The notes under the pieces: model-generated
What the model saw: only the letters and a program-made list of their open reading frames with translations
Told to the model about the DNA's origin: nothing
Databases searched by the model: none
Assembly (NCBI GenBank): GCA_020851415.1
Contig: JADZCU010000032.1
Coordinates: 38,379-102,378 of the forward strand
Direction: 5' to 3'
Length of the DNA stretch: 64,000 nucleotides
Source of the DNA: Candidatus Peregrinibacteria bacterium
GTDB lineage: Bacteria > Patescibacteriota > Gracilibacteria > UBA1369
In this document: in pieces, positions 3,828-61,900 of the stretch
How positions within the stretch are numbered: position 1 is the stretch's first letter
Layout of the letters: the number at the start of each line of letters is the position of its first letter
Position numbers and translations under genes: made by a program

Positions 3828-4896
3828 TTACTGAAGTTCAAGTGCGTGATCCATGAAATTATACATCATCAAGCCCATTTCACCTCGTGTAATTTTCTGA
3901 TCTGGAGACTCAACAGTTGATGGTTTGCCATTGATAGAATCAAATACGTTTATGAACTGCAGATACCAAGGATCAGTAGTTTCGTTTGGTGCAGAATTGA
4001 AAGCATTCACAATAATTTTTGCCGCCTCTGCGTAATTAATATTTTGTTCTGGCTTAAAAGTACCATCACTATAACCTGCGATAATACCTTCATTAAATGC
4101 ATGACAAACAGGATCTCTGTACCATGTGTCTTCAGAAGTCGAAACATCCGAAAAGATTTTCACAGAGCAGTCATAGATTTTCAAAGACTGAGTGGCATTC
4201 CCCATCATGATTTTCGTAAATTCAGCTCGATTGATCAAGCTGTCGGGTTTATAAGTTCCATCATCATAGCCTTGGATTGAACCATTACGTTTAAGGCTTG
4301 CAAGAGCCAATGCATACGAGCTGGTGCTCGGAACGTCATCAAAAATCGGAGTGCTAATTTCCATGGAACTCTTATCTGCAGGAACAACAGCAGGTTCAGT
4401 TCGCGTATCTGTTGTATCAGTTTTTTCACCTAAGTAATCAAGGGTAATAACACGTTTTTCATTATCAATACCGCTTACGGCGTAAAAACGGTCTACATAA
4501 GTATCGTTACTGATAATGTCAACGTAAGTATCATAAACATTAAAAGCATATGCGCCGTCTCCTCCCAAAACCGGATAAGCATTCACATCTTTTGCAGGAT
4601 CATAACCCTGTGTATCGGCGTTTTTTTTCAAACTCATCCGCATCAACCGCAAACAACAAAACAGTTTCGTACTTACCACCCTCTGCACAAGTCTCATCAG
4701 TTAAAACCTCAATAGTAGGAAAAGTTGCATCCATATCCTTATGTGAAACAATAAACTTCACTCCCGCAAAAGCAGAAGTATTTTGCAAAACCGCACACCC
4801 GGCAAGAGATTTTTGGCCTTCAGGAAGCGCATCGGCATACGCCAAAGACGTACTCAAAAACAAGCTCAGTAAAACCAAAGGTAGAACTTTCTTCAT
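3828..4896 (-). pseudogene. SLH-domain secreted protein interrupted by a 1-nt frameshift in an A8 run
   Basis: ORF 4600-4896 encodes a signal peptide (MKKVLPLVLLSLFLSTSLAYA). ORF 3828-4697 encodes two SLH repeats (GYDDGTYKPDSLINRAE, GYSDGTFKPEQNINYAE). The two frames overlap at the T8/A8 run at 4621-4628, and removing one A joins them. Confidence 0.65.
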
Positions 4897-9485: not shown

Positions 9486-10040
9486 CTAACCTTTGCTTTG
9501 CCCATACTGCCACAAAATTTCATAACCCACTATCCCAAACGCCGTCGCCACATTCAAAGAGTTCGCCCGGCCCAGCATGGGAATTTGCACACACATATCC
9601 AAAAGTTCCATACATTCATCACTTACACCATCCACTTCGTTACCTAAAACCAAAGCCAAAGGAAAATCGTAACGCGCCTCCTTGTAATGCTGGCTTCCCT
9701 CAGCCAATTCCAGACCACAAATCCTAACCCCGTTTTCTTTGAGTTTAAGAAGCGTTTCTTGGGTAGTCGGAACATATTCCCACGGCACGGTTAAGTCCGC
9801 CCCCAGGGCAGCTTTTGCAATATCAGCGCGTGGCGGATGAGCGGTAATACCGCACAAAAATATTTTCGAAGCCATCAGCGCATCACAGCTCCGAAAAATA
9901 GCCCCCACATTGTGAGTGCTTCGAATATTATCCAGGACAACAAACAGCGGCATTCGTTCTTTTTTCAAAATCTCCTCAATTGAGGGTTTGCTCCATAGTG
10001 ACTGTTTGCTGCTGTGTTTCTTGAATTGCTTGTTCATCAA
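9486..10040 (-). CDS. SpoU/TrmH-family RNA 2'-O-methyltransferase
   Basis: SpoU motifs are present: LDNIRSTHNVGAIFRSCDA, LVLGNEVDGVS and IPMLGRANSLNVATAFGI. The true start may be the ATG at 9953, which would remove the overlap with the upstream gene. Confidence 0.85.
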   Translation of the reverse strand: MMNKQFKKHSSKQSLWSKPSIEEILKKERMPLFVVLDNIRSTHNVGAIFRSCDALMASKIFLCGITAHPPRADIAKAALGADLTVPWEYVPTTQETLLKLKENGVRICGLELAEGSQHYKEARYDFPLALVLGNEVDGVSDECMELLDMCVQIPMLGRANSLNVATAFGIVGYEILWQYGQSKG

Positions 10041-10821
10041 TTACGGTTGGTTGATCCATAAATTCTTTCGCCCTGTCCATAAATTCAGTCATTTCCGCTC
10101 CTGTTACAGCGTCATTCGGGCGGAAGTATTCTTGATCCACTATCAGTCCGGCGTCAATCGCAAAGGCTACATAACGTCCATACCACCATTCATCTTCACT
10201 ATTTGGGTCTATATCACCAATACTATATTTCTCATCCAGGCTTTGTGTATGCCAATAATCTTCATCCATTTCAAATTTTTCCTTCCACGAAAGTTGATTG
10301 GTTGCACCCAAAATCACCTTTAAAGCCTGAATTCTGGTCAGATAATGGTTCGGGTGAAAGGGTGTCTGGCTCTCGCTCAAATAGCCGTGAACCAGTCCCA
10401 AGAGAGTCGCTATGTGAATCGCTTCAGAATATTTATTCCCAATTTTTACATCAGGATACAAAGTCAAAGGGTCAAACGTAATCCCGTCAAAATCAGATAT
10501 TGCACTAAAAACAAAAAAACATTCGTCCGGAACTTGGAAGCAGCTCTCAATAAATTTTTCGTTCAATGTCTCCAAGTCAAAAAAATCCACAACTCTCTGA
10601 ACCGCCTCGCCGCGCGTAAGTGGTTCATCGCTATGAGTCGAACCATAAGAAACCGGAATGTCAGTGACATTGTCTACTGTCAAAACCTCATCTTCGAAGC
10701 TAAGAGCAGCAAAAGCCATCGGCATACTAGACAGACTAAGTAGACAGACGGTAGACAGTACGTTGACAATGGTTGGACGTAGTTTAAACAAGGCTTTTTG
10801 AGTTTCTAGGGCTTGCGTCAT
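9976..10821 (-). CDS. Secreted protein with degenerate SLH-like repeats
   Basis: The N-terminal signal peptide ends in ..MPMAFA. Repeated LTRGEAV, LTRIQALKVILGA and TGAEMTEFMDRA segments follow. Confidence 0.5.
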   Translation of the reverse strand: MTQALETQKALFKLRPTIVNVLSTVCLLSLSSMPMAFAALSFEDEVLTVDNVTDIPVSYGSTHSDEPLTRGEAVQRVVDFFDLETLNEKFIESCFQVPDECFFVFSAISDFDGITFDPLTLYPDVKIGNKYSEAIHIATLLGLVHGYLSESQTPFHPNHYLTRIQALKVILGATNQLSWKEKFEMDEDYWHTQSLDEKYSIGDIDPNSEDEWWYGRYVAFAIDAGLIVDQEYFRPNDAVTGAEMTEFMDRAKEFMDQPTVIDEQAIQETQQQTVTMEQTLN

Positions 10822-11300
10822 TATACCCTTTCAACCCTAAAAGTAAATAAAGGGAACAAGCCTACGTACAGGGAATAATAGCGAGTCGCTAAAGTTCTAT
10901 TGAGATGTAATTGCCCTTATAAGCATAAAAAAATAGCCAAAATCACTGTAGACAGAGAAATGGACACTGTCTACAATGCGAGCAAAGGATGTCCATTTCG
11001 TGTCCACTCTATGTCTATGGACATGGGTAGAGAGCTAACCGTTGTAATAGTATGTTCAATGTAGACAGAAAAACTGCTAGTAAATTATTAAAAGTTACCA
11101 CGCGCACAGTAGACAGATGGATCGCGGGTAACAGATTGTCTATAGAAAAAAGAGACGGAAGAATATGGCTCAGTAGAAAGGAAATTGATGACATGCGCAG
11201 CCGCGCCAAAGTAGACAGAGAATCTATGTCTACTACTGATTTGTCCATAGACAAATCAGTGTCCACTTCGGTAGACATGTCTATCGACTCTGTCCACGTC
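10727..11300. repeat. Dense array of GTAGACAG / TGTCTAC / TGTCCAY motifs spanning a divergent intergenic region and both flanking 5' coding ends
   Basis: Exact GTAGACAG occurs at 10740, 10751, 10948, 11061, 11109 and 11211, and GTAGACAT at 11271. The reverse form TGTCTAC occurs at 10968 and 11227. TGTCCAY occurs at 10990, 11001, 11242, 11260 and 11291, and ATGGACA at 10960 and 11017. Perfect inverted repeats are 10947-10955/10967-10975 and 10989-10996/11017-11024, and TAGACATGTCTA at 11272-11283 is a palindrome. Confidence 0.85.
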
Positions 11301-11687
11301 ATGTCGGACGATGAGAAATTACCAAAGTCTCCACGCGCTCAAAATAGCTATAAGGGTGAGGAGGGGGTTTATAAGAAACTTTTTGAAGAATCCCAGCAAG
11401 AACTCAAAGTAAAACAGGAGCGCCTGGAGGGCGCAAATTATAGGGTAGGACAACTTGAGGCGATGCTCAAGGAGGCCATTCCCCTGCTCGAGCACCAAAA
11501 AATGGTTATCCAGGAGCGCAGTCAAAAAGAACAGGCTCAAAATGCAATCATCGAATTAAGCGCAAATTTAAATACCACAGAAACCAAACTAAAGGATGAA
11601 AAGCTGAACAGAAAAGTATTCATGATCTTCCTTTTCATCATCATGCTCCTCCAGCCCCTCTGGTTATTATTGGCGCTCAAAAATTAA
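11052..11687 (+). CDS. HTH (excisionase/MerR-like) DNA-binding protein with coiled coil and C-terminal transmembrane anchor
   Basis: The N-terminus TASKLLKVTTRTVDRWIAGNRLSIEKRDGRIWLSRKEID looks like a helix-turn-helix. The middle region is a heptad-rich coiled coil. The C-terminus is VFMIFLFIIMLLQPLWLLLAL. Confidence 0.6.
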   Translation: MFNVDRKTASKLLKVTTRTVDRWIAGNRLSIEKRDGRIWLSRKEIDDMRSRAKVDRESMSTTDLSIDKSVSTSVDMSIDSVHVMSDDEKLPKSPRAQNSYKGEEGVYKKLFEESQQELKVKQERLEGANYRVGQLEAMLKEAIPLLEHQKMVIQERSQKEQAQNAIIELSANLNTTETKLKDEKLNRKVFMIFLFIIMLLQPLWLLLALKN

Positions 11688-12319
11688 AGCACTTTTTCCA
11701 TAGTAATCAGGTCCTTTTCCATTAGTTTCACTTCAAGTCCCGAAAGACTTTGATTGATACGCTGAAATATTCCTTGTGGCTGTTCCAGCGCGGATCTCAA
11801 AGTCGCTTTATCTCCAATCGCTTGAAACTCATATGGCGGTTTCAGAATAGATCCGTTCAGTACAATTTCGCCGTTTGGAATCGTGTCAAAGCCGTTGGTG
11901 GCATCAACCAGTCGGATATTGTTAATAGAAATAGCTTCAGCGCCCGCACTCAACAACTCATTTGTCATGTCAGTGAGCCATATATCCTGTACTTTTCCGT
12001 TAATGGTAACGCTTACTCCCGGTCCGGAAACATCTCTTCTTCCACTCAACATCTCGTACTTTTCAATCTCCTCACGAATTGCCTTCAGTGACTCTTCCTG
12101 ATCGTTTGTCTTGAAAAGCTGATTCTGCAAATCGGATATTTCGTCTTCCAGTTTCTCATTGGATTTTTTCAAAATCTGCAGCTCACGAAAAGCATCTGCG
12201 CGGGTATCACGTCCAAATACGGAAGCAACGTCGGTAAACGCCCTGGATTGAACTGCGATCAGCAACCCCACAACAATCGATGTAATCAATAATGATAATT
12301 CACGCTCACGAATGGTCAT
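11684..12319 (-). CDS. DUF881 domain protein (division-cluster associated family)
   Basis: It has an N-terminal TM segment, a coiled coil, then GPGVSVTING...LLSAGAEAISINNIRL...PPYEFQAIGD, which is typical of DUF881. Confidence 0.8.
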   Translation of the reverse strand: MTIRERELSLLITSIVVGLLIAVQSRAFTDVASVFGRDTRADAFRELQILKKSNEKLEDEISDLQNQLFKTNDQEESLKAIREEIEKYEMLSGRRDVSGPGVSVTINGKVQDIWLTDMTNELLSAGAEAISINNIRLVDATNGFDTIPNGEIVLNGSILKPPYEFQAIGDKATLRSALEQPQGIFQRINQSLSGLEVKLMEKDLITMEKVL

Positions 12320-13053
12320 GTAGGATTGTTAACTGGTTTCATATATTTAACCGAGAAATCTCCATTATAAACAGGAGCCAATAAGCCGTTTTTTATCGCA
12401 AAAGAAAATTGAATATTCTTGGATTTCTGGCGTTTATAAAGGTCTGGAAGTGCATTTACATCAGTAAGCCTCTGGCTCATGAGTTCAGTGTCACCAATCG
12501 CTACTACTGTAAATGGCGGGAGCAGATGAAAATTATTTACTAAAATGGTGTTACCAACAGAAGTAATGGACGTATTCGAAAGTATGCGCTGATCGTTAAT
12601 GGAAATAGCCTCAGCTCTTGCCGATCTCAGTACATTTATTAAATCACGAAGATCGGCTGCATGGATCAAAGATTGATCGATTGAGTCTACCTCATCACGT
12701 TTTACCAGTACCCCGTCATTGAGTGAAATCTCCACGCCATCGCCTTTCGCGGTTTCAAGTCCAACGCTTTTTTTCAATTCATTCAGTGTTTCAATCAATT
12801 TTTGATCGCCAAGGTTTTTAGACTGATCTTGAGTTTTTCCAATCTCATCACGCAAAACAACGATCTTACTTTTTAGCAAAGATTGATCATCAAGAAAATT
12901 CTTGATCAATTCCTTTTTAATGGCGAGTTCATCAGATGGATACGAGCTCGTAGGTACGGAACTCCTAAACTGTGAAGTTATGAGAAGTCCGATAAATACA
13001 CCGGATGCCACGAACACCAACTGCGTTCTAAAACTAGGTTCTGAGAATTTCAT
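12316..13053 (-). CDS. DUF881 domain protein (second paralog, 4-nt overlap with the downstream gene)
   Basis: It has the same architecture: GDGVEISLNDG..LRSARAEAISINDQRI..PPFTVVAIGD. Confidence 0.8.
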   Translation of the reverse strand: MKFSEPSFRTQLVFVASGVFIGLLITSQFRSSVPTSSYPSDELAIKKELIKNFLDDQSLLKSKIVVLRDEIGKTQDQSKNLGDQKLIETLNELKKSVGLETAKGDGVEISLNDGVLVKRDEVDSIDQSLIHAADLRDLINVLRSARAEAISINDQRILSNTSITSVGNTILVNNFHLLPPFTVVAIGDTELMSQRLTDVNALPDLYKRQKSKNIQFSFAIKNGLLAPVYNGDFSVKYMKPVNNPT

Positions 13054-17014: not shown

Positions 17015-18343
17015 ATGAAGTTTTATCGTTTTCTTTCCGTCGGCCTGGTACTCTGCACACTCATGGCTAACGTAGGCGTAACTCTTGCAGAAACAGAAAT
17101 GTTGCCCTTCAAAGATGTCACAATGGACAACCCAAATTTCCAGGCCATCGTCGCCCTAAAAGAAAAAGGCATCATCAGCGGTTATCCAGATGGTACTTTC
17201 AAACCAAACCAGGTAGTAAATCGTGCCGAGGCCCTCAAAATGATCTATGGCATTGATGATCTCAAAACTTGGAGCCCAGTAGATGGCGCAATCTTCGGTG
17301 GTGCAACAGTTGATGTTCCTTTCACAGACATCGACAAAAACGCCTGGTACTTTGAATACCTCCAACGCGCCATGAACGACGGAGTAGTAAAAGGATATCC
17401 AGATAACACCTTCAAACCAGAACAAACAGTAAACACCGTTGAAAATCTCAAAATGCTCATGGAACACACATTCCTTCGTGTAGACCCCGAAGCTTTGGAA
17501 GAACAAAAAGAAATACTTCCAGCATTCTCCGATGTTGCAAATGACTCTTGGTATGCTCGATATGTTTCCTATGCACGTGAAAAAGGAGTTATCAGTGCCG
17601 ATGCAAGCAACAAGCTCTATCCATCAGCAGGCATGACCCGTGGCAAACTCGCTCAGGCCATCTACAATATGTATAAAGTCGACGAAAAATCCACCAACTA
17701 CTCAGTAAGCCGTGACGCAGTTAAGAACAAATATGTTCTCTTCAATGATATTGGCGAAACAGAAGTTGCTGAACTCCCTGAAACAGTAACAGAAAACGAA
17801 GAAGTTGATGCCACAATCTCAAAAATCACCGATAAATACGCATACGTTTCACTCTGCGCTACAGGCTTCGGCGGATACATTTGGTACGGTTTCTGCTACG
17901 GCACTACCTACCGCATCGACCTTGCAACAGGTGAAGTAGTAAATGCTGACTCAAGAACAGACACAGCATTCCACCTCAACTTCATGGACGCATCTCCAGA
18001 TGGCATGTGGACAGCTTGGACAAGCCAGGATACAGAGCACAAGATCTACGTTTTACCAGCTCCAGGAAATGAAAGTGGCGTTATGAAAATCTTCAACGTA
18101 GACGAAATGTACGGACAATTCGGTGACGTAAAATTCTCACCAGATGGAAAACAATTAGCCTACGCAGCCATCGTTGCAAACCCTGAAGAAGAGTTTACTG
18201 CTATCTACACCATCGACATTGCTACAGAAGAACAAACCACAGTATTAGAAGGTCTCGGTGGCCCGGATCAGATCGTCGGTTGGGAAGGTGAAACTGTTCT
18301 CTATACAGACGCCAGCTTCGATTTCCCTCCAATGGCTCTCTAA
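17015..18343 (+). CDS. SLH-domain surface protein with C-terminal TolB/beta-propeller-like region
   Basis: It has a signal peptide and three SLH repeats (GYPDGTFKPNQVVNRAE, GYPDNTFKPEQTVNTVE, ...). The C-terminus contains FSPDGKQLAY. Confidence 0.7.
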   Translation: MKFYRFLSVGLVLCTLMANVGVTLAETEMLPFKDVTMDNPNFQAIVALKEKGIISGYPDGTFKPNQVVNRAEALKMIYGIDDLKTWSPVDGAIFGGATVDVPFTDIDKNAWYFEYLQRAMNDGVVKGYPDNTFKPEQTVNTVENLKMLMEHTFLRVDPEALEEQKEILPAFSDVANDSWYARYVSYAREKGVISADASNKLYPSAGMTRGKLAQAIYNMYKVDEKSTNYSVSRDAVKNKYVLFNDIGETEVAELPETVTENEEVDATISKITDKYAYVSLCATGFGGYIWYGFCYGTTYRIDLATGEVVNADSRTDTAFHLNFMDASPDGMWTAWTSQDTEHKIYVLPAPGNESGVMKIFNVDEMYGQFGDVKFSPDGKQLAYAAIVANPEEEFTAIYTIDIATEEQTTVLEGLGGPDQIVGWEGETVLYTDASFDFPPMAL

Positions 18344-40786: not shown

Positions 40787-43495
40787 ATGAAACGTCAGAT
40801 CGCATCGTTTGCGCTCTTGAGCGTTCTGCTAAGTCTCAACGGCATTGCCATTGCAGCAGAAACCTCAACAACGACAACGACAGGTGTCTTCTCCGACGTT
40901 CCAAGAGAGTCTTTCAGTACAGACTCATTGGAATACCTAAAGGAGAACAATATTGTCAGCGGCTACCCCGATGGCACATTCAAACCCACGGCTGAAATCA
41001 ATCGCGCCGAATTCACAAAAATTATCGTTGGCGCATTAACGGACAGCCCAAAAGGTTCAAACTGTTTTTCTGACGTAAAAGATGAATGGTTTGCCCCTTA
41101 TGTATGTGAGGCAAAAGAACGAAAAATTATCGATGGTTACGCAGATGGAACCTTTAAACCTGCGGAAAACATCAATTTCTCAGAGGCATCAAAGATCGTT
41201 GCTAACGCTTTTGGTGTAACTCCAGATAACGGCGGCGACCCAAATGCGGAAAACTGGTATCAGCCGTTTGTAGTTGGTTTGGAAACCCAAAAAGCAATCC
41301 CACTCTCTGTAGATTTCTTTGACGAAAAAATCACTCGTGATGAAATGGCCGAGATGACATATCGTCTCAAAGCAAAAGTTACAGACAAAGGTTCACGCAG
41401 CTATAAAGAAATCGAAGGAGACAGTTTTGTCACCGTCGATTCCTGCAAACAACTTGAGGACCGTTATGAACACTACCTTTACAAGAGCGGTTCATACAAC
41501 ACCCCGGGAGACGTATATTACATGGAAGGAATGGGCGCCGGTGAACCGGCAGCAGCTCCAGCTCCAACCACTGACGCTACAAAATCTGCTGAAGAATCAT
41601 CAAGTTCAGGTTCAGCCGACTACTCAACAACCAACGTTCAGGTCGAAGGTGTAGATGAAGCAGACATTATCAAAAACGATGGAAAATACATCTATCTTAT
41701 CAAAGGAAATTCGGTTCGTATTATCGAAGCATACCCTGCTGACAACATGAAAGAATTGGTAAGTTTCCAGCTTGGTGACGCAGATGAAACTTTCTATCCA
41801 AGTGAAATGTATGTTGATGGGAACAAATTGGTAGTAGTTGGAAGCAAGAGCTTCTACTACACATACCCAATGGTAGAAGATACTTCAACGATGGACACAA
41901 AAATGATTTCACCTTCATACTACGGCAGTGGCAGAACAAAAGTTTTCATCGTAGATGTTACAGACCACAGCAAACCAACAGTGAAACGTTCAGTGGAGTT
42001 TGACGGTAACTACTCAACATCACGTAAAGTAGACGGAACACTCTACATGGTAATGAACAAATACCCATACTATCCTGTTATCTACAACGAGACGACAGGC
42101 GAATATGATCGCGACACAACTGGCTTCATCCCAATGATGAAAGATTCAAAAAACACAACTGAAGAGATTATCGTTCCATGTAATAAAGTAATGTTATTAC
42201 CAAAACCACAGAACTTTAATTTCCTCATTACCGCTGCAATCCCGGTAAACGACGAAACAAAAGATGTTTCCCGTGCAATGATTCTCGGTGACACACAAAA
42301 CGTGTATGCATCAAAAGAAAGCCTTTATGTAGCTGCAACAGACTGGGGTAACGGCTACTATCAGCCATACGGCTCATTTGGCACACAGGTCTACCGTTTC
42401 GCTTTGGGTGATGGAACCATCGAGTACGCAAGCAAAGGAAAAGTACCGGGCAACATCATCAATCAGTTCAGCATGGATGAATCAAACAAAACATTCCGCA
42501 TTGCTACAACAAAAAATGAATACGACCCGGACGATGAAATGAGCAACGGAGTATATGTTTTTGATCAATCAATGAAACAGCTTGGAAAAATTGAAGGCAT
42601 CGCTCCAGGCGAAAAAATCTACTCAACTCGTTTCATGGGTAACCGTCTGTACATGGTAACTTTCAAAACAGTAGATCCGCTTTTTGTTATCGATCTCTCC
42701 AACAGCGCCAGTCCAAAGATCCTTGGCAAGCTCAAGGTTCCTGGCTACTCAACATATCTCCACCCATACGACGAAACCCATTTAATCGGCTTTGGTAACG
42801 ACGTAGACGAAAGCATCGATGCAGACAAAGTTCACTCAGAGGACGCTATCTATTACACAGCGGTACTCGGTATGAAGATCGCCATGTTCGATGTAACGGA
42901 CGTCAATCATCCAAAAGAAATGTTCAAAGAAGTAATCGGTGACAGAGGTACAACAAGTGATGTTCTCTATAATCACAAAGCATTACTCTTCGACAAAGAA
43001 AAAGGCCTCATGGCATTCCCATTAACAGTTTATGAAATCGAAGATCCAAAAAACTGCAGCGAAAATACCTACTCAACATGTCAGGAAGGTTGCCAGAAAA
43101 TATGCGTACCAAAAACCTGTACATACGACAATGGAATCAAAGTTTGCAGCGCTGATTGTGATGGCGAAAACAGCTGCGTCCAGCAAGAATACACCTATGG
43201 CAAACCAACATTCCAGGGTGCTTACGTATACAACGTAGATCTCACAAACGGCTTCTCTCTCAAGGGTAAAGTAAGCCACTATACAGATGAAGAAACAGCC
43301 GAGGCAGTAACTCAAGGCTGGTTCAGTGACTACGAAAAAACCATCATGCGCGCTCTCTACATCGGTGAAAACTTATACACAGTTTCATCGGGCTATGTAA
43401 AAGCAAACGCCCTTTCCGATTTGGCTGAAAAAAGCATGTTGAAACTCGCAGACGCTACATACGATCTCGGTTACGACAAACCAATGCCTCTCTAA
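40787..43495 (+). CDS. SLH-domain surface protein fused to a secreted beta-propeller domain (PF09826-like)
   Basis: It has a signal peptide and two SLH repeats (GYPDGTFKPTAEINRAE, GYADGTFKPAENINFSE). TNVQVEGVDEADIIKNDGKYIYLI and VDPLFVIDLS..P follow, which are typical of the beta-propeller domain family. Confidence 0.8.
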   Translation: MKRQIASFALLSVLLSLNGIAIAAETSTTTTTGVFSDVPRESFSTDSLEYLKENNIVSGYPDGTFKPTAEINRAEFTKIIVGALTDSPKGSNCFSDVKDEWFAPYVCEAKERKIIDGYADGTFKPAENINFSEASKIVANAFGVTPDNGGDPNAENWYQPFVVGLETQKAIPLSVDFFDEKITRDEMAEMTYRLKAKVTDKGSRSYKEIEGDSFVTVDSCKQLEDRYEHYLYKSGSYNTPGDVYYMEGMGAGEPAAAPAPTTDATKSAEESSSSGSADYSTTNVQVEGVDEADIIKNDGKYIYLIKGNSVRIIEAYPADNMKELVSFQLGDADETFYPSEMYVDGNKLVVVGSKSFYYTYPMVEDTSTMDTKMISPSYYGSGRTKVFIVDVTDHSKPTVKRSVEFDGNYSTSRKVDGTLYMVMNKYPYYPVIYNETTGEYDRDTTGFIPMMKDSKNTTEEIIVPCNKVMLLPKPQNFNFLITAAIPVNDETKDVSRAMILGDTQNVYASKESLYVAATDWGNGYYQPYGSFGTQVYRFALGDGTIEYASKGKVPGNIINQFSMDESNKTFRIATTKNEYDPDDEMSNGVYVFDQSMKQLGKIEGIAPGEKIYSTRFMGNRLYMVTFKTVDPLFVIDLSNSASPKILGKLKVPGYSTYLHPYDETHLIGFGNDVDESIDADKVHSEDAIYYTAVLGMKIAMFDVTDVNHPKEMFKEVIGDRGTTSDVLYNHKALLFDKEKGLMAFPLTVYEIEDPKNCSENTYSTCQEGCQKICVPKTCTYDNGIKVCSADCDGENSCVQQEYTYGKPTFQGAYVYNVDLTNGFSLKGKVSHYTDEETAEAVTQGWFSDYEKTIMRALYIGENLYTVSSGYVKANALSDLAEKSMLKLADATYDLGYDKPMPL

Positions 43496-53534: not shown

Positions 53535-56500
53535 TTAGTGTGAAACATGGACACCAGGGGACTCTGAGGCAGATTGGAATCTTTTCTTTATAGCATTAAG
53601 CTTTTCGATGGTTTCAGTAATAGTAATGGCGTCATGGGCATCCATGAGTCGAGTTGATAATGCATCAAGTTCGGCTATGGCGCTATCGATCACACCTTCA
53701 GAAATACCCCATTTTTTAGCCCATTCAGACTTATTTTCAGTCAGAGCTTTTCTATAACGCTGCAAAGAAACTCCAACCTGATTTTTATCTGCAAGAGCCA
53801 AAATTTCCTTTGGCATTTTAGGTACTGGTGTACCGGCAGCCTTTGCTTCCGCAACGACGCGTTTTGCCTGTGCAATCATTTCATTGATATGTTCAGCAGA
53901 AAAATAACTTGGTGTAATACCAATCTGTCTGGAATCGGAGATTGAACCAGTAGGTGACATACGTACAACAGCATAACTCTGTGAACGACCGTCGGCACCC
54001 TTTGGACCGGTTGGAATAACGCGAAGTTGAGATATTTCTTCAACGGAAGTAAGCGATAGATCACCCAGGAAGCCACCTTCAGTACCATGTGATTTACCAA
54101 CAAAAACGTTTTCCGGCTTATAATCCAGATGAATCCAGCCATTCTCATGCAGTCTATCAAGACCTTCAAGAGAATCCAAAAAATAGCTCAAAACAGAATG
54201 AGGATTTTCACCCGCATATAATCGACCTTTGAGCGATATATCTTTTCCCGGTGCGCCTTCGACCTTTTCAAAAATTATTACTGGAGAAGATCCTGGTTTA
54301 GAAACAAGGCGAGGTTTAATCAGGCCGGTACTGTCCGGGAAATCAATGACTGCCTGAAGTGCAGTACGTTCATTATCAAAAATTCTGCGAATCGAATCCA
54401 ATTCAAAATTCATACTGGCCATTCGTGATCTCAGTGATGTCTTCATCTCTTCAGTTAAACTCTTTGAGTGAAGCCATTCTTCGAGTTGACTTATCTCTTC
54501 AGCAATAACTTTAGCCTTCTTGTTGGTATCCTCAATATTAGCAAGTCTATCACGTGCATCAGTTAATTGATCCTGAATTTTTTTCGCCTCTGCCGTATTT
54601 GCCTTTGCCGTTTTGAGCTGTTCATCCAGTTTTCGGATCTGCATACGAAGATCGATCGCATTATCCATTTCAGCAAGTTTCGCTCGCTTCGCAGCAATCT
54701 TCCCCTGTAATCTTTCTATCTCTGCAGCACTCAGTTTTCCTTCATCCAGCATCTTGGCAATATCATGAATCTCCAATGACATTGCTTCAACATTTTTCGG
54801 ACGCTTCATGGCTGCTGTTTCTAAACGTGAGCCGTCACCTACTACATAGGCACAATCTGAAACAATTCCAAATCCACCTTCACCAAGTGTTTCACCGACA
54901 TAATAACGAACCTTATTACCCTTTGAATCTCGAACAAATTGGTACTCTTGTTTTAAAATTCGTTCAATGAGAGTTGCGTCAAGGTTCTCAAGACTTGAGT
55001 GCAATAATCGCAGCTCTTCGTCTGGTAATGCTTCAAGTAATCTGTAAAACTCATTTGGATTCATCTTCTTTGCCGCAGCCTGAAGTGGCTTACTGCCTGC
55101 GGCGGAAGTTTCAATTTTCGCTACCAGATTTCTTCTTTCAGGAGTTCTTGGCTTTGGAGAAAAATCAGGCTTCGCCTGCAAAGCAGCAGCTTCTTCCGCT
55201 TCGGAAAAACGCTCCTTCGATTTTCTTTCAGCATTCTCTTTACCAAGTTTACCTGCGGGTTTTGTTGAGCTGTCGTCAACAGACGATTTTGCTTTACCCT
55301 CTGACGGCTCTTCTTTTTTAGGCTTCGCTGGAGCTTCATCAGAAGTTTTCTTTTTGACAGGTTTTGATTCGGTGACAGTGGCTGAAGTAGTTTTTTCACC
55401 CTTTTTATCAGGTGCCACTTTTTTACCAGTATCAGCTTTTACAGGTTTTCCTATTTCTTTTGAATATTTTCTATGTAAATCCAGATATTCGGGATGTTCA
55501 CGTACAATTTTCTGAAACTCAGCCGGCTTACCGCGTGTCGCTTCGATTGCCTTATAAGCCTCTTCTGCAGTAACAACCTTTTTCGCATTTGCAGTTGCGG
55601 CACCCTCAACAACTTCAAGTTTTTTCCCACCTCTGGCGATTGTTAAAGCCAGGTTACCGGCTCCCTTCGCCAAAGTAGCGGGGAGTTTCACAACACCCAC
55701 AACCACGCCTGAAATATCTTTAATAAACACCTCAACAAAAGTACGGGCACCCAAAAGCGCAGCGCGGCCGGCACCCATGCCGCCGATCTTCACGGCTGCA
55801 ATAGAAGTCTTCACCGCTGTGGCTGTTGCACCTGCTCCACTTAAAGTAGCGACAACGTCAACCATCATTCTACCGATAATTTTACTGGTACTTTCCTTGT
55901 CCCATTTATCCTTTTGCAAAAGCGCATCAACAATCATGCCCGGATGATTGATCAAATGGCCAATGCCTTTTACTGCATCAATAGGATTACGCACCATCAT
56001 GCCAAGTCCTTGAATCAAATCTTTACATCCTTCCGTCACGCCGGCAAAAACCTCAATAATCGTCCCAAGCCCGCCACCACTAAACGTGTCCAAAATAGTA
56101 TCAACAAGATTATTACCGGTTGGATTTCCTATACTCAAATGTTTCGAAGCTTCACTCATCCAATCCCACGCCTCTTGCAAATGCATTTTGCCACCTATCC
56201 ATGTAAATCCGGAACCGATTGCATCCCAAGCCTTTACCCAGCCTTCACCCATGTAACCGACAATTTCAATTGCGGCACCCAAACCGGGTGCTTTTTTAGC
56301 CCAATCCCAGGTGGCACCCGCCTTCTTTGAAACCCAGCTGGAACCGGCTTCAACTCCTGGAATACCTCTCAAAGCAGCACCGGCAGTATCTATAAGCCCG
56401 GGACCTTTGATATCCATTTGTTTCAACATTTTCAAATAACTTTCAGCTTTCTTGATCAGCTCAAAGTTAGACGTATCAACCTCAAGAACAGCTCCTGAAA

Positions 56501-57947
56501 CTGATTCATCAAGCGAATCAATCATAGCCAACTCGGCTTTCTCACCTTCGTTGATAGTTTTAAGATTTTCATCAAGTTGGGTAATAGTTGCAGTTACAGA
56601 TTTGTCAGTTGCAATAATTTCAGTTTGAGCCCTTTTTGTGCGGGACGTATCTGCAATAAGCTTACTCAGCTGACCCTGCATTCCGGAAAGTGTGGAGTCC
56701 ATTTTTATTTGCTCGCCCGCAACACCTTGGCTACCCTCACGCAACTGGTGTGCCGCGTCACCTGCTTTCCGCTGCCCTTCTTCAATCTGCTGAACAACGT
56801 TCGCCGGTGCGGCATTTCCCTCCTGCTTTCTCTTTTCAACCTCACCCTTGGCCGCCGCCAGACCTTCTTCTGCTTTTTCGATCTCACCGGTTTTTTCTTC
56901 CATTTCCCGCTTACGCTCAGCGACCATTCGCATTTTGGAGACCATCACATCATACTGGTGTTGGATGTCCTGTCTGGCTTTTTCATTTTGAACAATACGA
57001 TCTTCCGCCTCCTTCTTTTTCTTATCATTTTCTGCCTTCTTTTTCTTCGCCAGACTCAGATTCTCTGTCACCTTATCGCGTGCCTCTTTATATTTTTTTT
57101 CAGTTTTAGCTTTTACTTTTTCAGGAGCGCCGTTTAAATCATCACCACGTTTTTGACGTTCCTTCTGTTTCTTTTTCATTTCAGTCAGCTTGGTCTGGAA
57201 ATCCTTGACGGCGTTTTCTTTAGCCTCCTTCGCCGCTTTAACTTCAGGGATATCTTCAGTCCACGGAGCCAAACTCACCAGATACTCACCAACAGCAGTT
57301 GCTCCGGTATTATGAGGTTTATTGGCGTCATCAACTTTTTGTTTTGCATCTCCAAATGTAACTGCGAGTTTTCCAAAATCTTCAGCTTCATTCTCAAAAT
57401 CCTTTTGATATTTCAAAAGTTCTGTATAAACACCATCGGCGGTTTCCATGTTCGCGGTATCGATTTTCGTCACATCTACGCCCTTCAACCGCTTCTGTGC
57501 TTCAGCCGCAGCTTCAGCATTTTCCTTGGTTTTTTCAGCCTCGGCTTTTTTCTCCTTTTTCAATTCAGCTAAACGATCCAGAATTTCACGAACCTTTTTC
57601 GTCAGTTCCTCCTTGAAGGTTTTGTATTCAGCTGCATCAATACCCGAATTGGAATCCTTGTCATATTTAGATATATTTCCATCTATCCATTGTCCAAAAT
57701 TTTTCTTCATCCGATCCTTAAAATCCTGTGGTAAAGAACGGAAATTATAGACCTTATAATCATCGAGCTCATAAATTGCATCCACCTCTTTTCTCGCTTC
57801 AGTTTTGCGGGCATCAATCTTTTCTTCATCAGGTACGGCAGACTCTTTCGGTGCCTTTTCTTTTGATTGTTCATTTTCAAAAACAAAACGTTTCGTTTTC
57901 AAAAGCGAATCATCAAAGAATTTAAATTGTGAGCATTTGATTACCAT
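53535..57947 (-). CDS. Giant protein 1 (1470 aa): coiled coil, Gly/Ala/Trp-rich hydrophobic core, Lys/Pro-rich linker, C-terminal Ser/Thr-kinase-like domain
   Basis: A 4.4-kb uninterrupted ORF. Kinase motifs are the G-loop GETLGEGGFGIV (54867-54884), AAMK, HLDYKPEN (54108-54131), LGDLS and TPSYFSAE. The N-terminal ~450 aa are Lys/Glu-rich heptads. Confidence 0.8.
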   Translation of the reverse strand: MVIKCSQFKFFDDSLLKTKRFVFENEQSKEKAPKESAVPDEEKIDARKTEARKEVDAIYELDDYKVYNFRSLPQDFKDRMKKNFGQWIDGNISKYDKDSNSGIDAAEYKTFKEELTKKVREILDRLAELKKEKKAEAEKTKENAEAAAEAQKRLKGVDVTKIDTANMETADGVYTELLKYQKDFENEAEDFGKLAVTFGDAKQKVDDANKPHNTGATAVGEYLVSLAPWTEDIPEVKAAKEAKENAVKDFQTKLTEMKKKQKERQKRGDDLNGAPEKVKAKTEKKYKEARDKVTENLSLAKKKKAENDKKKKEAEDRIVQNEKARQDIQHQYDVMVSKMRMVAERKREMEEKTGEIEKAEEGLAAAKGEVEKRKQEGNAAPANVVQQIEEGQRKAGDAAHQLREGSQGVAGEQIKMDSTLSGMQGQLSKLIADTSRTKRAQTEIIATDKSVTATITQLDENLKTINEGEKAELAMIDSLDESVSGAVLEVDTSNFELIKKAESYLKMLKQMDIKGPGLIDTAGAALRGIPGVEAGSSWVSKKAGATWDWAKKAPGLGAAIEIVGYMGEGWVKAWDAIGSGFTWIGGKMHLQEAWDWMSEASKHLSIGNPTGNNLVDTILDTFSGGGLGTIIEVFAGVTEGCKDLIQGLGMMVRNPIDAVKGIGHLINHPGMIVDALLQKDKWDKESTSKIIGRMMVDVVATLSGAGATATAVKTSIAAVKIGGMGAGRAALLGARTFVEVFIKDISGVVVGVVKLPATLAKGAGNLALTIARGGKKLEVVEGAATANAKKVVTAEEAYKAIEATRGKPAEFQKIVREHPEYLDLHRKYSKEIGKPVKADTGKKVAPDKKGEKTTSATVTESKPVKKKTSDEAPAKPKKEEPSEGKAKSSVDDSSTKPAGKLGKENAERKSKERFSEAEEAAALQAKPDFSPKPRTPERRNLVAKIETSAAGSKPLQAAAKKMNPNEFYRLLEALPDEELRLLHSSLENLDATLIERILKQEYQFVRDSKGNKVRYYVGETLGEGGFGIVSDCAYVVGDGSRLETAAMKRPKNVEAMSLEIHDIAKMLDEGKLSAAEIERLQGKIAAKRAKLAEMDNAIDLRMQIRKLDEQLKTAKANTAEAKKIQDQLTDARDRLANIEDTNKKAKVIAEEISQLEEWLHSKSLTEEMKTSLRSRMASMNFELDSIRRIFDNERTALQAVIDFPDSTGLIKPRLVSKPGSSPVIIFEKVEGAPGKDISLKGRLYAGENPHSVLSYFLDSLEGLDRLHENGWIHLDYKPENVFVGKSHGTEGGFLGDLSLTSVEEISQLRVIPTGPKGADGRSQSYAVVRMSPTGSISDSRQIGITPSYFSAEHINEMIAQAKRVVAEAKAAGTPVPKMPKEILALADKNQVGVSLQRYRKALTENKSEWAKKWGISEGVIDSAIAELDALSTRLMDAHDAITITETIEKLNAIKKRFQSASESPGVHVSH

Positions 57948-58940: not shown

Positions 58941-61900
58941 TTATTGAATGTAAGGTTTCATATCGCGTGCTGCATCAGCTGGAGTATAAGTGAAGTTATT
59001 GGGATCTTTCAATTTATTTACAATTTCCATAAGTTTTGCCTTTGCTACGGGGTCAGCTGGAGAGCGATCAATACCATAATCCATGGGCACTGAGCTGGTA
59101 GGGTCATATTTGTGATCTGGAGCGGCTTTTGGCATATGTATTTTTCCCGTTACTATGGCCTCAAGTTGAACTCCCAACGCATAGGCATCTATTTTCCACG
59201 CGTACTGCGGGCCCTTTGCAATGACTGCATCTGTAACTGCACCAGAATAGAACATCGGCGATACTTGAGACGGAACGCGACCTAAATAGACAGGTTCTGT
59301 ACTGCCATTAAAAGTATATCCCGGTATATGTCCACTCAACCCCTGAAAAAACGCATCATTCGGTGTGACAGTTCCAAAGTCACCTAATCTACCACCATTA
59401 TCCGTTGGAAATATTTGTGATGATTTAAAGTCACCATGAATCAAGCCATTTCTATGGAGGAAAGAAAGTCCAATTGCCCCATCATGAAGACCATGAAGTA
59501 ATCTACTCAATGGCACATTCGGATCATCCCCCAAAGCATCATAATCACCGGATTTTTTCTTGCCGTCAGCGCCAGTATAGTCAACAAGTTCATAAAGTAT
59601 AGATTTTCCATCCGGGCTAATCGCAATAGGTTTTACAAAAACATTATCAGCGCCATTCGCTTTTTCCTTCTGTACAACATCGACTACATATCCAGCTCCA
59701 ACAGCCTCTGATCCCAGTGTTATGCCTTGTGCGGCAGCATCAGGTTTCACCACTTTCATACCTGCAAATCGAACCTCTTTTGTCACAGGATCAATGAGCG
59801 CTACTCGGTAAAAGGCACCAATACCACCTTCTCCGGCGCTCTTCGACATGTCCGGATAGTACTCATAACTGACACCATTAATATCAATTTTTTCAGATTT
59901 GCCCGAAGCCATTCGATCCACCATGTCCTTGTTCATATATGGTGAATTAATATTTTTCCCCAAAAACTCAAACATCGGAGCAGATATTTGATTGGTAGCC
60001 ATGACTTTTTCCACAATATCCTGAGTGATGTTTTGTGAATCCAAACTACGCTCCAGGAATTTTTGTTTTTCAGGTGAGATACTGGCACTAAAAGTACTCG
60101 GAGAATTTAAGATAATATCAACATAATTTTCCAAATGACCGTTAACGTCACGACTCAACAACTTCATAAGTTTAGGGTCGGGATGATTTAATATTGTATC
60201 AACATCTTGAGAGTCACTTGCAAATCTTTTCAGCACTTCAACTTTATCAGGAGTAAGCAAATGAGCATTCTTGATGAGCTTCTGTTTCATAGCCGGAGGT
60301 CCGCCAAGGCCTGATATCATATCCAGAGCACGCTGTTGATCTTTTGTTGCCTGGAATTTTTCCATCAAATCAAAATAGCTCTTATACTTTTGATAAATTG
60401 GATGTTTGCCCACAATTTGGACTGCATCGGCAAATTCACCTCTGCCTAAAGCAGCAAATAACCTATCACGTAAGGCTTCAAAAGCCTGTCTGTCCTTAGG
60501 ATCAACTTTGTATACTGCATCCTGCAACTGTTTACCAATTGCCAGACTGGCCGCCTCAACAACTGCTGAACGGTCATATAACTGCTTCGCAACATGATAT
60601 TCTGACAATAGCTGATATGCTTTATCTCCAAGAATCTTACGAATTTCAGCATTGTTCCCCTGTAAATCAGGGCGTTGCTTCATTAAGAATGTATAATCGG
60701 CATAAGCCTGTTGATGTGCCGAACTATCCAAAGCTGGATCGCGCACATGGAAAGCATCCGCAGTTGAACGTACCAGGTCTTCGGGACTTGTAAATTTCAA
60801 TTTCATAGTGTCCACTTGAGCCACCTTATCAAAAGTAAACCCAGGTATATCTGCCGAAATAGAAGTTTCGAGCAGTATCCTGGTGATTGGTGCTAATCCC
60901 TGGACACGCCCATCTGCAATTTCAGCCATAAACTCTTCCGCATTTCGTGGCGTTAATTCTTGTCCTCGTCTGGCAAAAAGTTCAGAAAGTTGTGGATCTG
61001 CCTGAACAAGTTTTACAAGTTTTTCGCCAATCTTTGCCGCACCAATAACACGATGTGCTCGTTCGTGTTTACCTTCTGTTTTCATCTCGGCAAGAATCTC
61101 TTTTCCCTGTGGATGAGATTTAAAGAACTCTTTGGCACTCATCTCAACTCCATCTACCACAAATACATTCACAGGTTTTCCATCTTTACCCTCAACTTGT
61201 TTCATCTCAACACCATATTTAGCTTCAAAATATTCGCTGTTGTAATGAATTTTTCCCTCCTTATCAATCCAAGCTGGAACATCTTTAGACTCTTTTTTCT
61301 TTCCATCAACGCCTTCTTCACCAAGCATTTCTTCAGGAATACCCTTCGAGAAAACAGAATAAAAATGTGTTTCTGCCGCAGTTTTTTCCATGTACTGCAA
61401 TTTACCGTTTTTATCTATAATAAGAACGCCTCTTCCCTCACCAAGTACTGCAACAATCTGAGGTTCACCTTCTGCTACAGGTTTATTATTTGCATTGTAT
61501 TTATCAACATACTCGGCAATTTCAGCCGGAGTATTCAGCTTTTTGCCCGCAACTGCGCTTCCAACTTCACCGGCAATCAACAAAACCACAGCATCACGCG
61601 GAGTATTAACTGAGTTGGCCTGTTTTTCAATAATTCCAAAAAGCTCAGCATGTTGAGGATATCGGCTTCTAAGTGAAGCAAGCTCCGTAGCATCATGCCC
61701 CAAAAGCGCGGTCGTATATTTTTCAAATATACCCAAAGTTTCAACATCAATTTTAACACCACCCGGAGATCGGTAAGGTCCCTTGTCTGCACCTTCTGAT
61801 CCGCCAAGAGAACCCAGAATAGCTTCAGCAATCTTTAATTGTGCAACCAAATTTGGATCAATTTTTCCCTCTTTTTGTTGTTCGGCAATCTTTGCCTCAA

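Follow-up and report, generated by a model that had tools for sequence, protein, structure and literature searches.

Here we describe a dense array of short DNA repeats in a Candidatus Peregrinibacteria genome, lying in a 64,000-nucleotide stretch of contig JADZCU010000032.1 (assembly GCA_020851415.1, positions 38,379 to 102,378), which we analysed as a whole and refer to as the window. In total, about 25 copies of the word RTRGACA are spread over some 630 bp, covering the promoter and the first half of a gene whose product has a domain of the helix-turn-helix (HTH) type and is predicted to be anchored in the membrane. That the array is a protein-binding platform selected at the level of the DNA is nearly certain, and to judge from the sequences its binder is quite probably the adjacent HTH protein, which is also rather likely to regulate its own gene. 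We lean towards the reading that 10671-11296 is a conserved cis array in which a 7-8 bp word, W-R-T-N-G-A-C-A, is repeated about 25 times, and that the gene which it overlaps encodes the protein for which it serves as the cognate platform. A role of this platform in tethering or segregation is the least certain step of the argument, and we consider it possible but doubtful.

Composition of the array in the window

The octamer GTAGACAG occurs seven times in the whole window and every copy lies within 10740-11218, six of them on the plus strand (10740, 10751, 10948, 11061, 11109 and 11211) and the seventh on the minus strand (10967-10974). Shuffling the sequence gives an expectation of 0.73 copies, and none of 100 shuffles reached seven. 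For the core hexamer TRGACA, 22 of the 54 copies in the window fall within 10671-11296 (626 bp), where the shuffle average of 47.1 copies per 64 kb predicts 0.46 (Poisson P ~2e-29), while any other 500-bp bin of the window holds at most two. The common core of the array is this hexamer preceded by a purine (RTRGACA), and 21 of the 40 window copies of that form fall in 10600-11400.

A first-pass annotation, made from the letters of the window, had described an array of about 20 such motifs here, far above chance. The array and its excess are borne out by these counts, the six plus-strand copies of GTAGACAG had been placed correctly, and the other copies listed are all found in the sequence: one GTAGACAT (11271), two TGTCTAC (10968 and 11227) and seven of the TGTCCA/TGGACA variant. 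The inverted repeats that it pointed out, TGTAGACAG-11 nt-CTGTCTACA and TAGACATGTCTA, are likewise present, and the peptides as which the coding copies are read in frame (VDR, VDM, MST and SID) are correct. The list was incomplete, however, since it missed five TRGACA copies (10671, 11012, 11137, 11248 and 11278) and three degenerate ones (TTGACA at 10763, TGGACG at 10774 and TAAACA at 10785). In relatives whose protein is 93% and 75% identical, TAGACA stands in the place of these degenerate copies, and they complete a left-hand run of six repeats whose phasing is exactly 11 bp from 10741 on.

Read from left to right, the array opens with an outlying minus-strand copy (TGTCTAC, 10671-10676) inside the divergent gene for a secreted SLH-domain protein (9976-10821, minus strand). 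Sub-array A (10728-10790) consists of six direct copies on the plus strand, in the 5' region of the SLH gene that codes for its signal peptide: TAGACA at 10728, 10741 and 10752, followed by the three degenerate copies. The predicted SLH promoter (TTTACT-16-TATAAT, 10820-10847, minus strand), which is a consensus match only and is conserved in close relatives, has this sub-array just downstream of it. The predicted promoter of the HTH gene (10949-10977, plus strand) is a sigma-70-type match whose -35 hexamer is itself a copy of the motif (TAGACA, 10949-10954), separated by a 17-bp spacer from the -10 hexamer TACAAT (10972-10977), and the spacer holds two further copies (TGGACA at 10961 and TGTCTA at 10968). 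Within the 5' untranslated region (5'UTR) there follows a run of inverted and then direct copies, sub-array B (10990-11023), made up of TGTCCA at 10990 and 11001 and TGTCTA at 11012, spaced by 11 bp, and an abutting inverted TGGACA at 11018; in close relatives its sites are kept and its spacers have diverged. The HTH gene itself (11052-11687, plus strand) encodes a protein of 211 amino acids, and the part coding for the HTH domain carries three copies (11062-11142), at 11062 (V4-D5-R6), 11110 (V20-D21-R22) and 11137 (L29-S30-I31). The copy at 11110 sits in the codons of the recognition helix, RTVDR. Finally, the eight copies of sub-array C (11212-11296) stand in both orientations and code for residues 54-83 of a disordered linker, VDRESMSTTDLSIDKSVSTSVDMSIDSVHV.

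We found no avoidance of TAGACA outside the cluster, where in the window and in the pooled flanks of the orthologous loci it occurs at or slightly above its Markov expectation, and titration avoidance, in which the motif would be depleted elsewhere, was therefore rejected. The -35 consensus TTGACA, on the other hand, is about 2-fold under-represented outside 10600-11400 (13 copies in the window against 32-50 expected) and in the pooled flanks of loci L001-L080 (158 copies against about 300 expected), unlike its one-base variant TAGACA. The sole phased pair outside the cluster is an isolated pair of TGGACA copies 9 bp apart at 18008-18022, inside the SLH gene at 17015-18343, and is probably due to chance.

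Conservation and selection at the DNA level

For comparison we used 80 orthologous loci from species-level genome bins of Peregrinibacteria and Peribacteria, with 33-52% protein identity. Because the loci share common descent, binomial P values would exaggerate significance, and it is the effect sizes that count. Alignment of orthologous loci, a check that the first-pass annotation had proposed, finds the array at the same place in most of the 80. The density of TRGACA is 18 per kb between -400 and +300 of the gene start and drops to 0.96 per kb over the other ~480 kb. It peaks at -150 to 0 and at +150 to +250 from the gene start, with smaller peaks over the HTH-coding part and further upstream, and this two-cluster layout recurs locus after locus. 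When 6-mers of the 770-bp region are ranked de novo, TAGACA/TGTCTA comes out on top in 57 of the 80 loci and one of its variants (TCGACA, TGGACA, ATAGAC or ATCGAC) in 11 more, and at least ten copies of TNGACA are present in 68 of the 80. The consensus is W-R-T-(A>G,C)-G-A-C-A, in which the GACA core is invariant, as is the recognition helix RT[VIL]DRY of the protein, and the bases that follow it are unconstrained.

The layout is fixed as well and recurs in about 70 related uncultured bacteria: a promoter with the motif as its -35 hexamer, an array in the 5'UTR, two or three sites in the HTH-coding part, and an array in the part coding for the linker. The promoter arrangement T[ACG]GAC[AT]-N16-18-TAnnWT is found in 64 of 78 loci, mostly 103-125 bp before the start codon and with a 17-bp spacer, and 43 of these 64 promoter-bearing loci have a further motif copy in the spacer, 4 nt after the -35 hexamer. 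Synteny is kept around it, in the order YbeY, SpoU and SLH (minus strand), HTH (plus strand) and two DUF881 genes (minus strand). Where adjacent copies point the same way, the distance between them is 9-12 bp, or roughly one turn of the helix. Inverted copies adjoin one another, for example in TAGACATGTCTA and TGTCTATAGACA, and in TCGACA-rich lineages they overlap as the palindrome TGTCGACA. This abutting or overlapping geometry implies that the half-site is GACA and that the protein face reading it can be presented in either orientation.

Some loci depart from this general picture or stand beside it. Secondary clusters of 3-7 copies lie at -1000 to -650 from the HTH start, inside the large divergent SLH gene, in L014, L018, L024, L043, L044, L046, L057, L067 and L076. 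Three loci (L029, L041 and L052) come from bins labelled Nitrospirota or Nitrospirae and have the full Peregrinibacteria-type locus, synteny and array included; their contigs are probably mis-binned. We also scanned metagenomes for three phased TAGACA copies, a search that has no bearing on genome-wide uniqueness. The matches listed included unrelated tandem repeats, and among them only L162 had a distant homologue of the HTH gene, with the phased match 2.3 kb from the gene. L162 is a metagenome contig of 26% GC, its homologue has an in-frame TGA (SVL*VSTRTIDRYVK), and it probably belongs to a Gracilibacteria lineage using genetic code 25.

The coding copies raise the question of whether the DNA or the peptide is under selection, which the first-pass annotation had left as a choice between a protein shaped around a DNA signal and the reverse. 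The peptide does have a claim, for in our family alignment (A1) the linker shows the conserved peptides VD..MSIDK..S..VDMSID, and the DNA repeats might be the mere by-product of a functional linker peptide (VD/MSID) that is itself repeated. The same motif, however, fills noncoding DNA, with an average of about seven copies in the intergenic regions, and where it is translated the synonymous sites are constrained. In the HTH-coding part, the codon for D21 is GAC in 60 of 81 loci (74%, against a background of 30%), that for V20 is GTA in 28 of 37, that for R22 is AGR in 79% (47% in the background), and that for S30 is TCY in 54 of 64 (background 35%). For the linker, the test was made non-circular by conditioning on the dipeptide, with control open reading frames (ORFs) from the same loci: the full motif is spelled out by the codons of 74% of [VI]-D dipeptides, where the control ORFs give 11%, and of 78% of [MLV]-S dipeptides, where they give 9%. 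The residue after V-D can be any amino acid whose codon begins with A, and the motif is found in the second and third reading frames too. Moreover, eleven loci (L047, L060-L064, L068, L069, L074, L075 and L079) are entirely without VDMSID peptides and keep two arrays about 200-250 bp apart, both of them upstream and noncoding. In the relatives at 93% and 75% identity the sites stay, while the spacers and other intergenic sequence diverge. On the evidence of these sequences the DNA is the selected feature and the VDMSID peptide a passenger, as follows from the noncoding copies, the forced synonymous codons, the sublineage that lacks the peptide, the predicted disorder of the linker and the divergence of the spacers; an origin of the repeats in the peptide is next to impossible. 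The earlier alternative is thereby settled, by the codon bias and the peptide-less sublineage, in favour of DNA that has shaped protein.

The HTH protein and its structural relatives

The 211 residues of the protein are laid out as a winged HTH domain (1-57), a linker (55-97), a long helix or coiled coil (103-185) and a transmembrane helix (~186-207). In the AlphaFold2 model, a confident beta-alpha-alpha-beta-beta-alpha domain at 1-57 (predicted local distance difference test score, pLDDT, of ~90 for residues 1-50) is followed by the linker, which at a pLDDT below 50 is predicted to be disordered, and then by a single long helix of 108 residues (103-210). The hydrophobic end of this helix, VFMIFLFIIMLLQPLWLLLAL, is predicted to form a transmembrane anchor at the C-terminus, and hardly any residues follow it. 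Foldseek searches of the PDB place the N-terminal domain among winged HTH folds, the top matches being the N-terminal domains of RacA, GlnR, Xis, BldC, Par and the MerR family. The top structures (Bacillus subtilis RacA with DNA, Staphylococcus aureus GlnR, mycobacteriophage Pukovnik Xis, Streptomyces BldC with DNA, and the DNA-binding domain of pSK1 Par with its centromere) are all winged HTH domains of the MerR superfamily. Three profile libraries agree, weakly, on the excisionase/HTH_17 class: HTH_17 (PF12728) scores 17.5 bits against a cut-off of 27 and TIGR01764 16.4 bits against 28.8, both below threshold, and a PHROG excisionase family matches at E = 0.003. Several orthologues carry precomputed PF12728 matches. 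A search of the PDB with the family profile at the sequence level found nothing relevant.

We could detect 519 members of the family, every one of them in a Patescibacteria bin that is labelled Peregrinibacteria, Peribacteria or 'Gracilibacteria'. The family alignment shows three strongly conserved modules: the HTH with the helix RT[VIL]DRY, the helix motif ERLEGANYRVGQLE and the transmembrane motif LLQPLW. The latter two, which are near-invariant and lie outside the HTH domain, stand at the start of the long helix (residues 123-136, positions 11418-11459) and in the anchor (residues 199-204, positions 11646-11663), and their conservation suggests a specific protein partner, perhaps within the membrane. 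A tblastn search against 72,556 plasmids (a collection without pSK1 GU565967) found no relatives, which argues that the family is not a plasmid partition gene. PADLOC gave no defence-system match, and a mobile element was rejected on this ground together with the housekeeping synteny and the lack of plasmid relatives. Our literature search found no description of the HTH family or of the array.

In the order of its parts, as predicted, the protein follows Par and RocS: a winged HTH, a coiled coil and a C-terminal membrane element. Par of the staphylococcal plasmid pSK1 binds repeats upstream of its own gene, which is divergent from a neighbour gene, and this is the pattern of Par-type centromere proteins. 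Its N-terminal domain is a MerR-type winged HTH that matches ours in fold (Par-centromere structure 8csh, template modelling (TM) score 0.72), and it continues in the same way with a central coiled coil and then a C-terminal membrane element. RocS of Streptococcus pneumoniae has a winged HTH, an oligomerising coiled coil and a C-terminal membrane anchor, and is chromosomal like the locus described here; we know of no clustered cognate array at the rocS gene. RacA of B. subtilis, finally, comes closest in fold to the HTH domain (5i44 and 5i41, probability 1.00, TM ~0.6), combines a winged HTH with a coiled coil, and binds repeated centromere-like sites and fixes the DNA to the envelope. Its sites are about 25 GC-rich 14-bp inverted repeats (ram) across the origin region, and it anchors via DivIVA. 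According to published work, Par is a single-protein plasmid partition system, RacA binds centromere-like repeats, and RocS is linked to segregation and division; all three have a MerR-type winged HTH and then an oligomerising coiled coil, RocS ends in a membrane-binding amphipathic helix, and Par has a C-terminus all but identical with the membrane-binding amphipathic helix of RocS and MinD (PMC11500499).

The differences are as clear as the likenesses. Unlike Par, the window protein has a true predicted transmembrane helix in place of an amphipathic one, its locus is chromosomal and embedded in housekeeping synteny instead of being plasmid-borne, and its array runs through coding sequence. 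RocS has a DUF536 module and a MinD-like amphipathic helix, and no sequence relationship to it was found. Where RacA has dispersed GC-rich 14-bp inverted repeats, the window has one dense cluster of 0.6 kb built from a 7-8 bp word, and the anchor is a direct transmembrane one. BldC and Xis match the HTH domain in fold (TM 0.72-0.81), in keeping with the weak HTH_17 and excisionase profile matches, and in the case of BldC head-to-tail multimers occupy 9-bp direct repeats, which vary in number (PMC5859096). That period is compatible with the 9-12 bp spacing of same-orientation copies in the window. However, BldC and Xis are small, consist of a single domain and lack both a coiled coil and a membrane anchor, in contrast to the 211 residues of ours, the sites of BldC are AT-rich and read by shape, and inverted copies are as common as direct ones in the window array. 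Among plasmid centromere-operators, such as ParR-parC and the omega heptad arrays, short phased direct or inverted repeats over the promoter of the binder's operon act as both centromere and autoregulatory operator. The window array is similar in that its short phased repeats overlap the promoter of the candidate binder's gene, but the binders of those systems are ribbon-helix-helix proteins with a partner NTPase, and no ParA, ParM or similar gene adjoins the locus.

Regulation, tethering and other readings

If the adjacent protein is indeed the binder, its HTH domains would load side by side on direct or inverted copies one helical turn (9-12 bp) apart, and loading on about 25 sites would be cooperative, comparable to the filaments of BldC and Xis and to the pSK1 Par centromere complex. 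From the position of the motif copies in the promoters, occupancy of the array should shut both of them, so that it would repress the HTH gene itself and probably the SLH gene too, which is a possible co-regulated target. The predicted coiled-coil oligomer, fixed in the membrane, would in addition hold the occupied platform of 0.6 kb at the membrane and so form a single-locus tether. By analogy, the locus would resemble a DNA-membrane tether of the Par/RocS/RacA type with a centromere-operator, outside the DUF536 family. The first-pass annotation had proposed a multi-site binding platform and given an autoregulatory operator, a centromere-like or tethering site and a replication-type iteron set as examples. 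A platform under DNA-level constraint and tied to the HTH gene agrees with the conserved arrays, the forced codons and the relocation of the array into noncoding DNA, and binding would follow by inference. The operator is the best supported of the three examples, with motif copies making up the -35 hexamer and the spacer of the promoter; the tether is plausible from the architecture of the protein and its fold neighbours.

Several observations weigh against a cognate pairing of this protein with the array, or against its kinship with Par. The pairing is drawn from co-location and conservation only. Seven distant orthologous loci (L036, L048, L054, L056, L066, L070 and L072) and the code-25 locus L162 keep the recognition helix and have no array at their own gene, so that the function of the protein does not strictly require the cis array, which is a lineage-specific elaboration; in the array-less genomes the protein presumably has other sites. 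We found no coevolution of the helix with the variable position of the motif, RT[VIL]DRY being invariant, and the choice of A, C or G at position 2 appears to follow GC content, as judged from individual loci with no correlation computed. The uniqueness of the cluster is established for the window, where it is the only dense one, and for the ~480 kb of flanks, not for the whole genome, as the census suggested in the first-pass annotation would have it. As to kinship, the window protein has no DUF536 (PF04394) match, while the Par homologue of the staphylococcal plasmid pN315 matches at 7e-11, and hhalign of alignment A1 against this homologue gives a probability of 0.3%. Membership in the DUF536 Par/RocS family was rejected on these two results and on the transmembrane rather than amphipathic anchor.

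These points bear on two other accounts of the same DNA. The array may be a transcriptional operator and nothing else, used by the protein or by some partner to repress the HTH and SLH promoters, which are divergent, without any structural or tethering role, its copy number giving tight cooperative feedback and a roadblock to elongation for a potentially toxic tail-anchored protein. The copies in the -35 hexamer and spacer, those that fill the 5'UTR, and sub-array A directly downstream of the predicted SLH promoter all suit this account, as does the SLH gene as a conserved divergent neighbour in 59 of the 80 loci, and the seven array-less loci are also without an SLH match. What tells against it is the scale of the element, for 15-30 sites over 0.4-0.6 kb exceed the typical bacterial autorepressor operator, which has far fewer. 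Simple repression offers no obvious task for the conserved layout in two arrays, for the coiled coil or for the transmembrane anchor, which is conserved too, and L069, L074 and L079 have arrays and no detectable SLH neighbour. We regard an operator without further function as rather unlikely. Less probable still is that the array is bound by some other trans-factor of these bacteria (a global regulator or a nucleoid protein, for instance), the HTH gene being its most heavily regulated target. The link between HTH and motif is an indirect one, the recognition helix is the same in homologues without local arrays, and TAGACA resembles the -35 consensus TTGACA, all of which would fit such a factor. 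On the other side, dense arrays are found essentially only at the family's own locus (~540 kb examined), their sites are embedded even in the codons of the recognition helix, and repeats upstream of the binder's own gene are what Par-type centromere proteins have, so that we consider a foreign binder improbable.

The remaining accounts can be given little credence. Acting as RNA, inverted UAGACA/UGUCUA copies would fold the 5'UTR and the linker mRNA into hairpins that control translation or stability. The RNA of 11205-11300 does fold at -34.6 kcal/mol (z = -5.2), with a perfect 11-bp stem at 11235-11260, where the inverted repeat ACTGATTTGTC/GACAAATCAGT reaches beyond the motif in a structure that is not conserved in orthologues; this strong hairpin follows from the inverted motif copies and the local 11-bp palindrome. 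The 5'UTR, however, has no excess structure (z = +0.47), the flanks of inverted pairs in the orthologues are complementary beyond the motif only at the level of chance, in many sub-arrays all the repeats are direct, there are arrays upstream of the predicted promoter or on the strand of the other gene, and there is no Rfam match. The array is probably not an RNA structure, and hairpin control as its function is very improbable. A set of replication-type iterons or a part of the chromosomal origin is hardly credible either, even though the array is iteron-like with its phasing of ~11 bp and the Peribacter genome paper mentions unspecified 'short repeats' near the skew-defined origin (PMC4736985). 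The GC skew, which the first-pass annotation had proposed as a check for an origin or terminus, is uniformly negative across the window without a switch, and in 44 of 58 orthologous loci the skew is likewise negative on either flank. DnaA boxes are at chance level in the window, with none at 10-12 kb, and no dnaA, dnaN, rep or par genes (parA, parB) were found among the window genes. Nor do the neighbouring genes or others in the window encode ParA or ParB domains, and the motif bears no relation to parS. The locus lies on the chromosome amid housekeeping synteny, and the protein has no plasmid relatives. The iteron example of the first-pass annotation is therefore not upheld.

The genes around the locus are those of an ordinary chromosome. 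To the right, two DUF881 genes (11684-13053, minus strand) are convergent with the HTH gene and are conserved neighbours in 63-64 of the 80 loci, and we note them as context only; the 3' ends of the HTH gene and the first of them overlap by 4 bp (11684-11687). The DUF881 proteins have N-terminal hydrophobic segments. A search of the literature on DUF881 and on division or segregation in Peregrinibacteria found nothing that bears on the locus. To the left of the SLH gene lie the genes for YbeY and a SpoU methylase. Elsewhere the window encodes LysRS, DnaB, ArgRS, RecA, RecX and NusA, along with several SLH proteins. The divergent SLH gene takes the form, in many orthologous loci, of a version of about 700 amino acids with a large N-terminal extension. 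At least five SLH-domain proteins are encoded in the 64 kb (109-2274, 3828-4697, 9976-10821, 17015-18343 and 40787-43495), a number that implies an S-layer or cell-wall-anchored surface proteome. Two very large minus-strand ORFs, at 53535-57947 (1470 amino acids) and 58941-63938 (1665 amino acids), have no Pfam match at 1e-5.

Returning to the array as a cognate platform of the HTH protein, we tentatively suggest, as an idea that may well prove wrong, that Peregrinibacteria and Peribacteria carry a minimal one-gene tether between chromosome and membrane. It would consist of a tail-anchored coiled-coil protein whose RacA/Par-like winged HTH occupies some 20-30 sites over its own promoter and coding sequence, and loading might happen in cis during synthesis of the protein. 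The locus would then be fixed to the membrane beside envelope- and division-associated genes (SLH and DUF881), and would serve segregation or nucleoid positioning. The unusual extra feature here is that a binding-site array has overwritten part of the coding sequence of its own candidate binder, and if the tether is real, the locus would be a clear example from bacteria of a code of binding sites written on top of a protein code. Whatever its function, the locus is an unusually clean natural instance of dual coding, in which a DNA motif dictates codons and the residues of a disordered linker across a whole bacterial class, with a natural control in the one sublineage in which the array has left the gene and the peptide has disappeared. 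It also carries a warning that conserved short peptides in disordered regions can be the shadows of selection on DNA. The Patescibacteria, or candidate phyla radiation (CPR), are uncultured. For the study of their chromosome biology the locus supplies a conserved and sharply defined cis element together with a candidate trans factor, both of which can be tested in vitro or in a surrogate host, and the question of whether these minimal cells anchor or organise their chromosome through a single Par/RocS-like membrane protein can now be answered.

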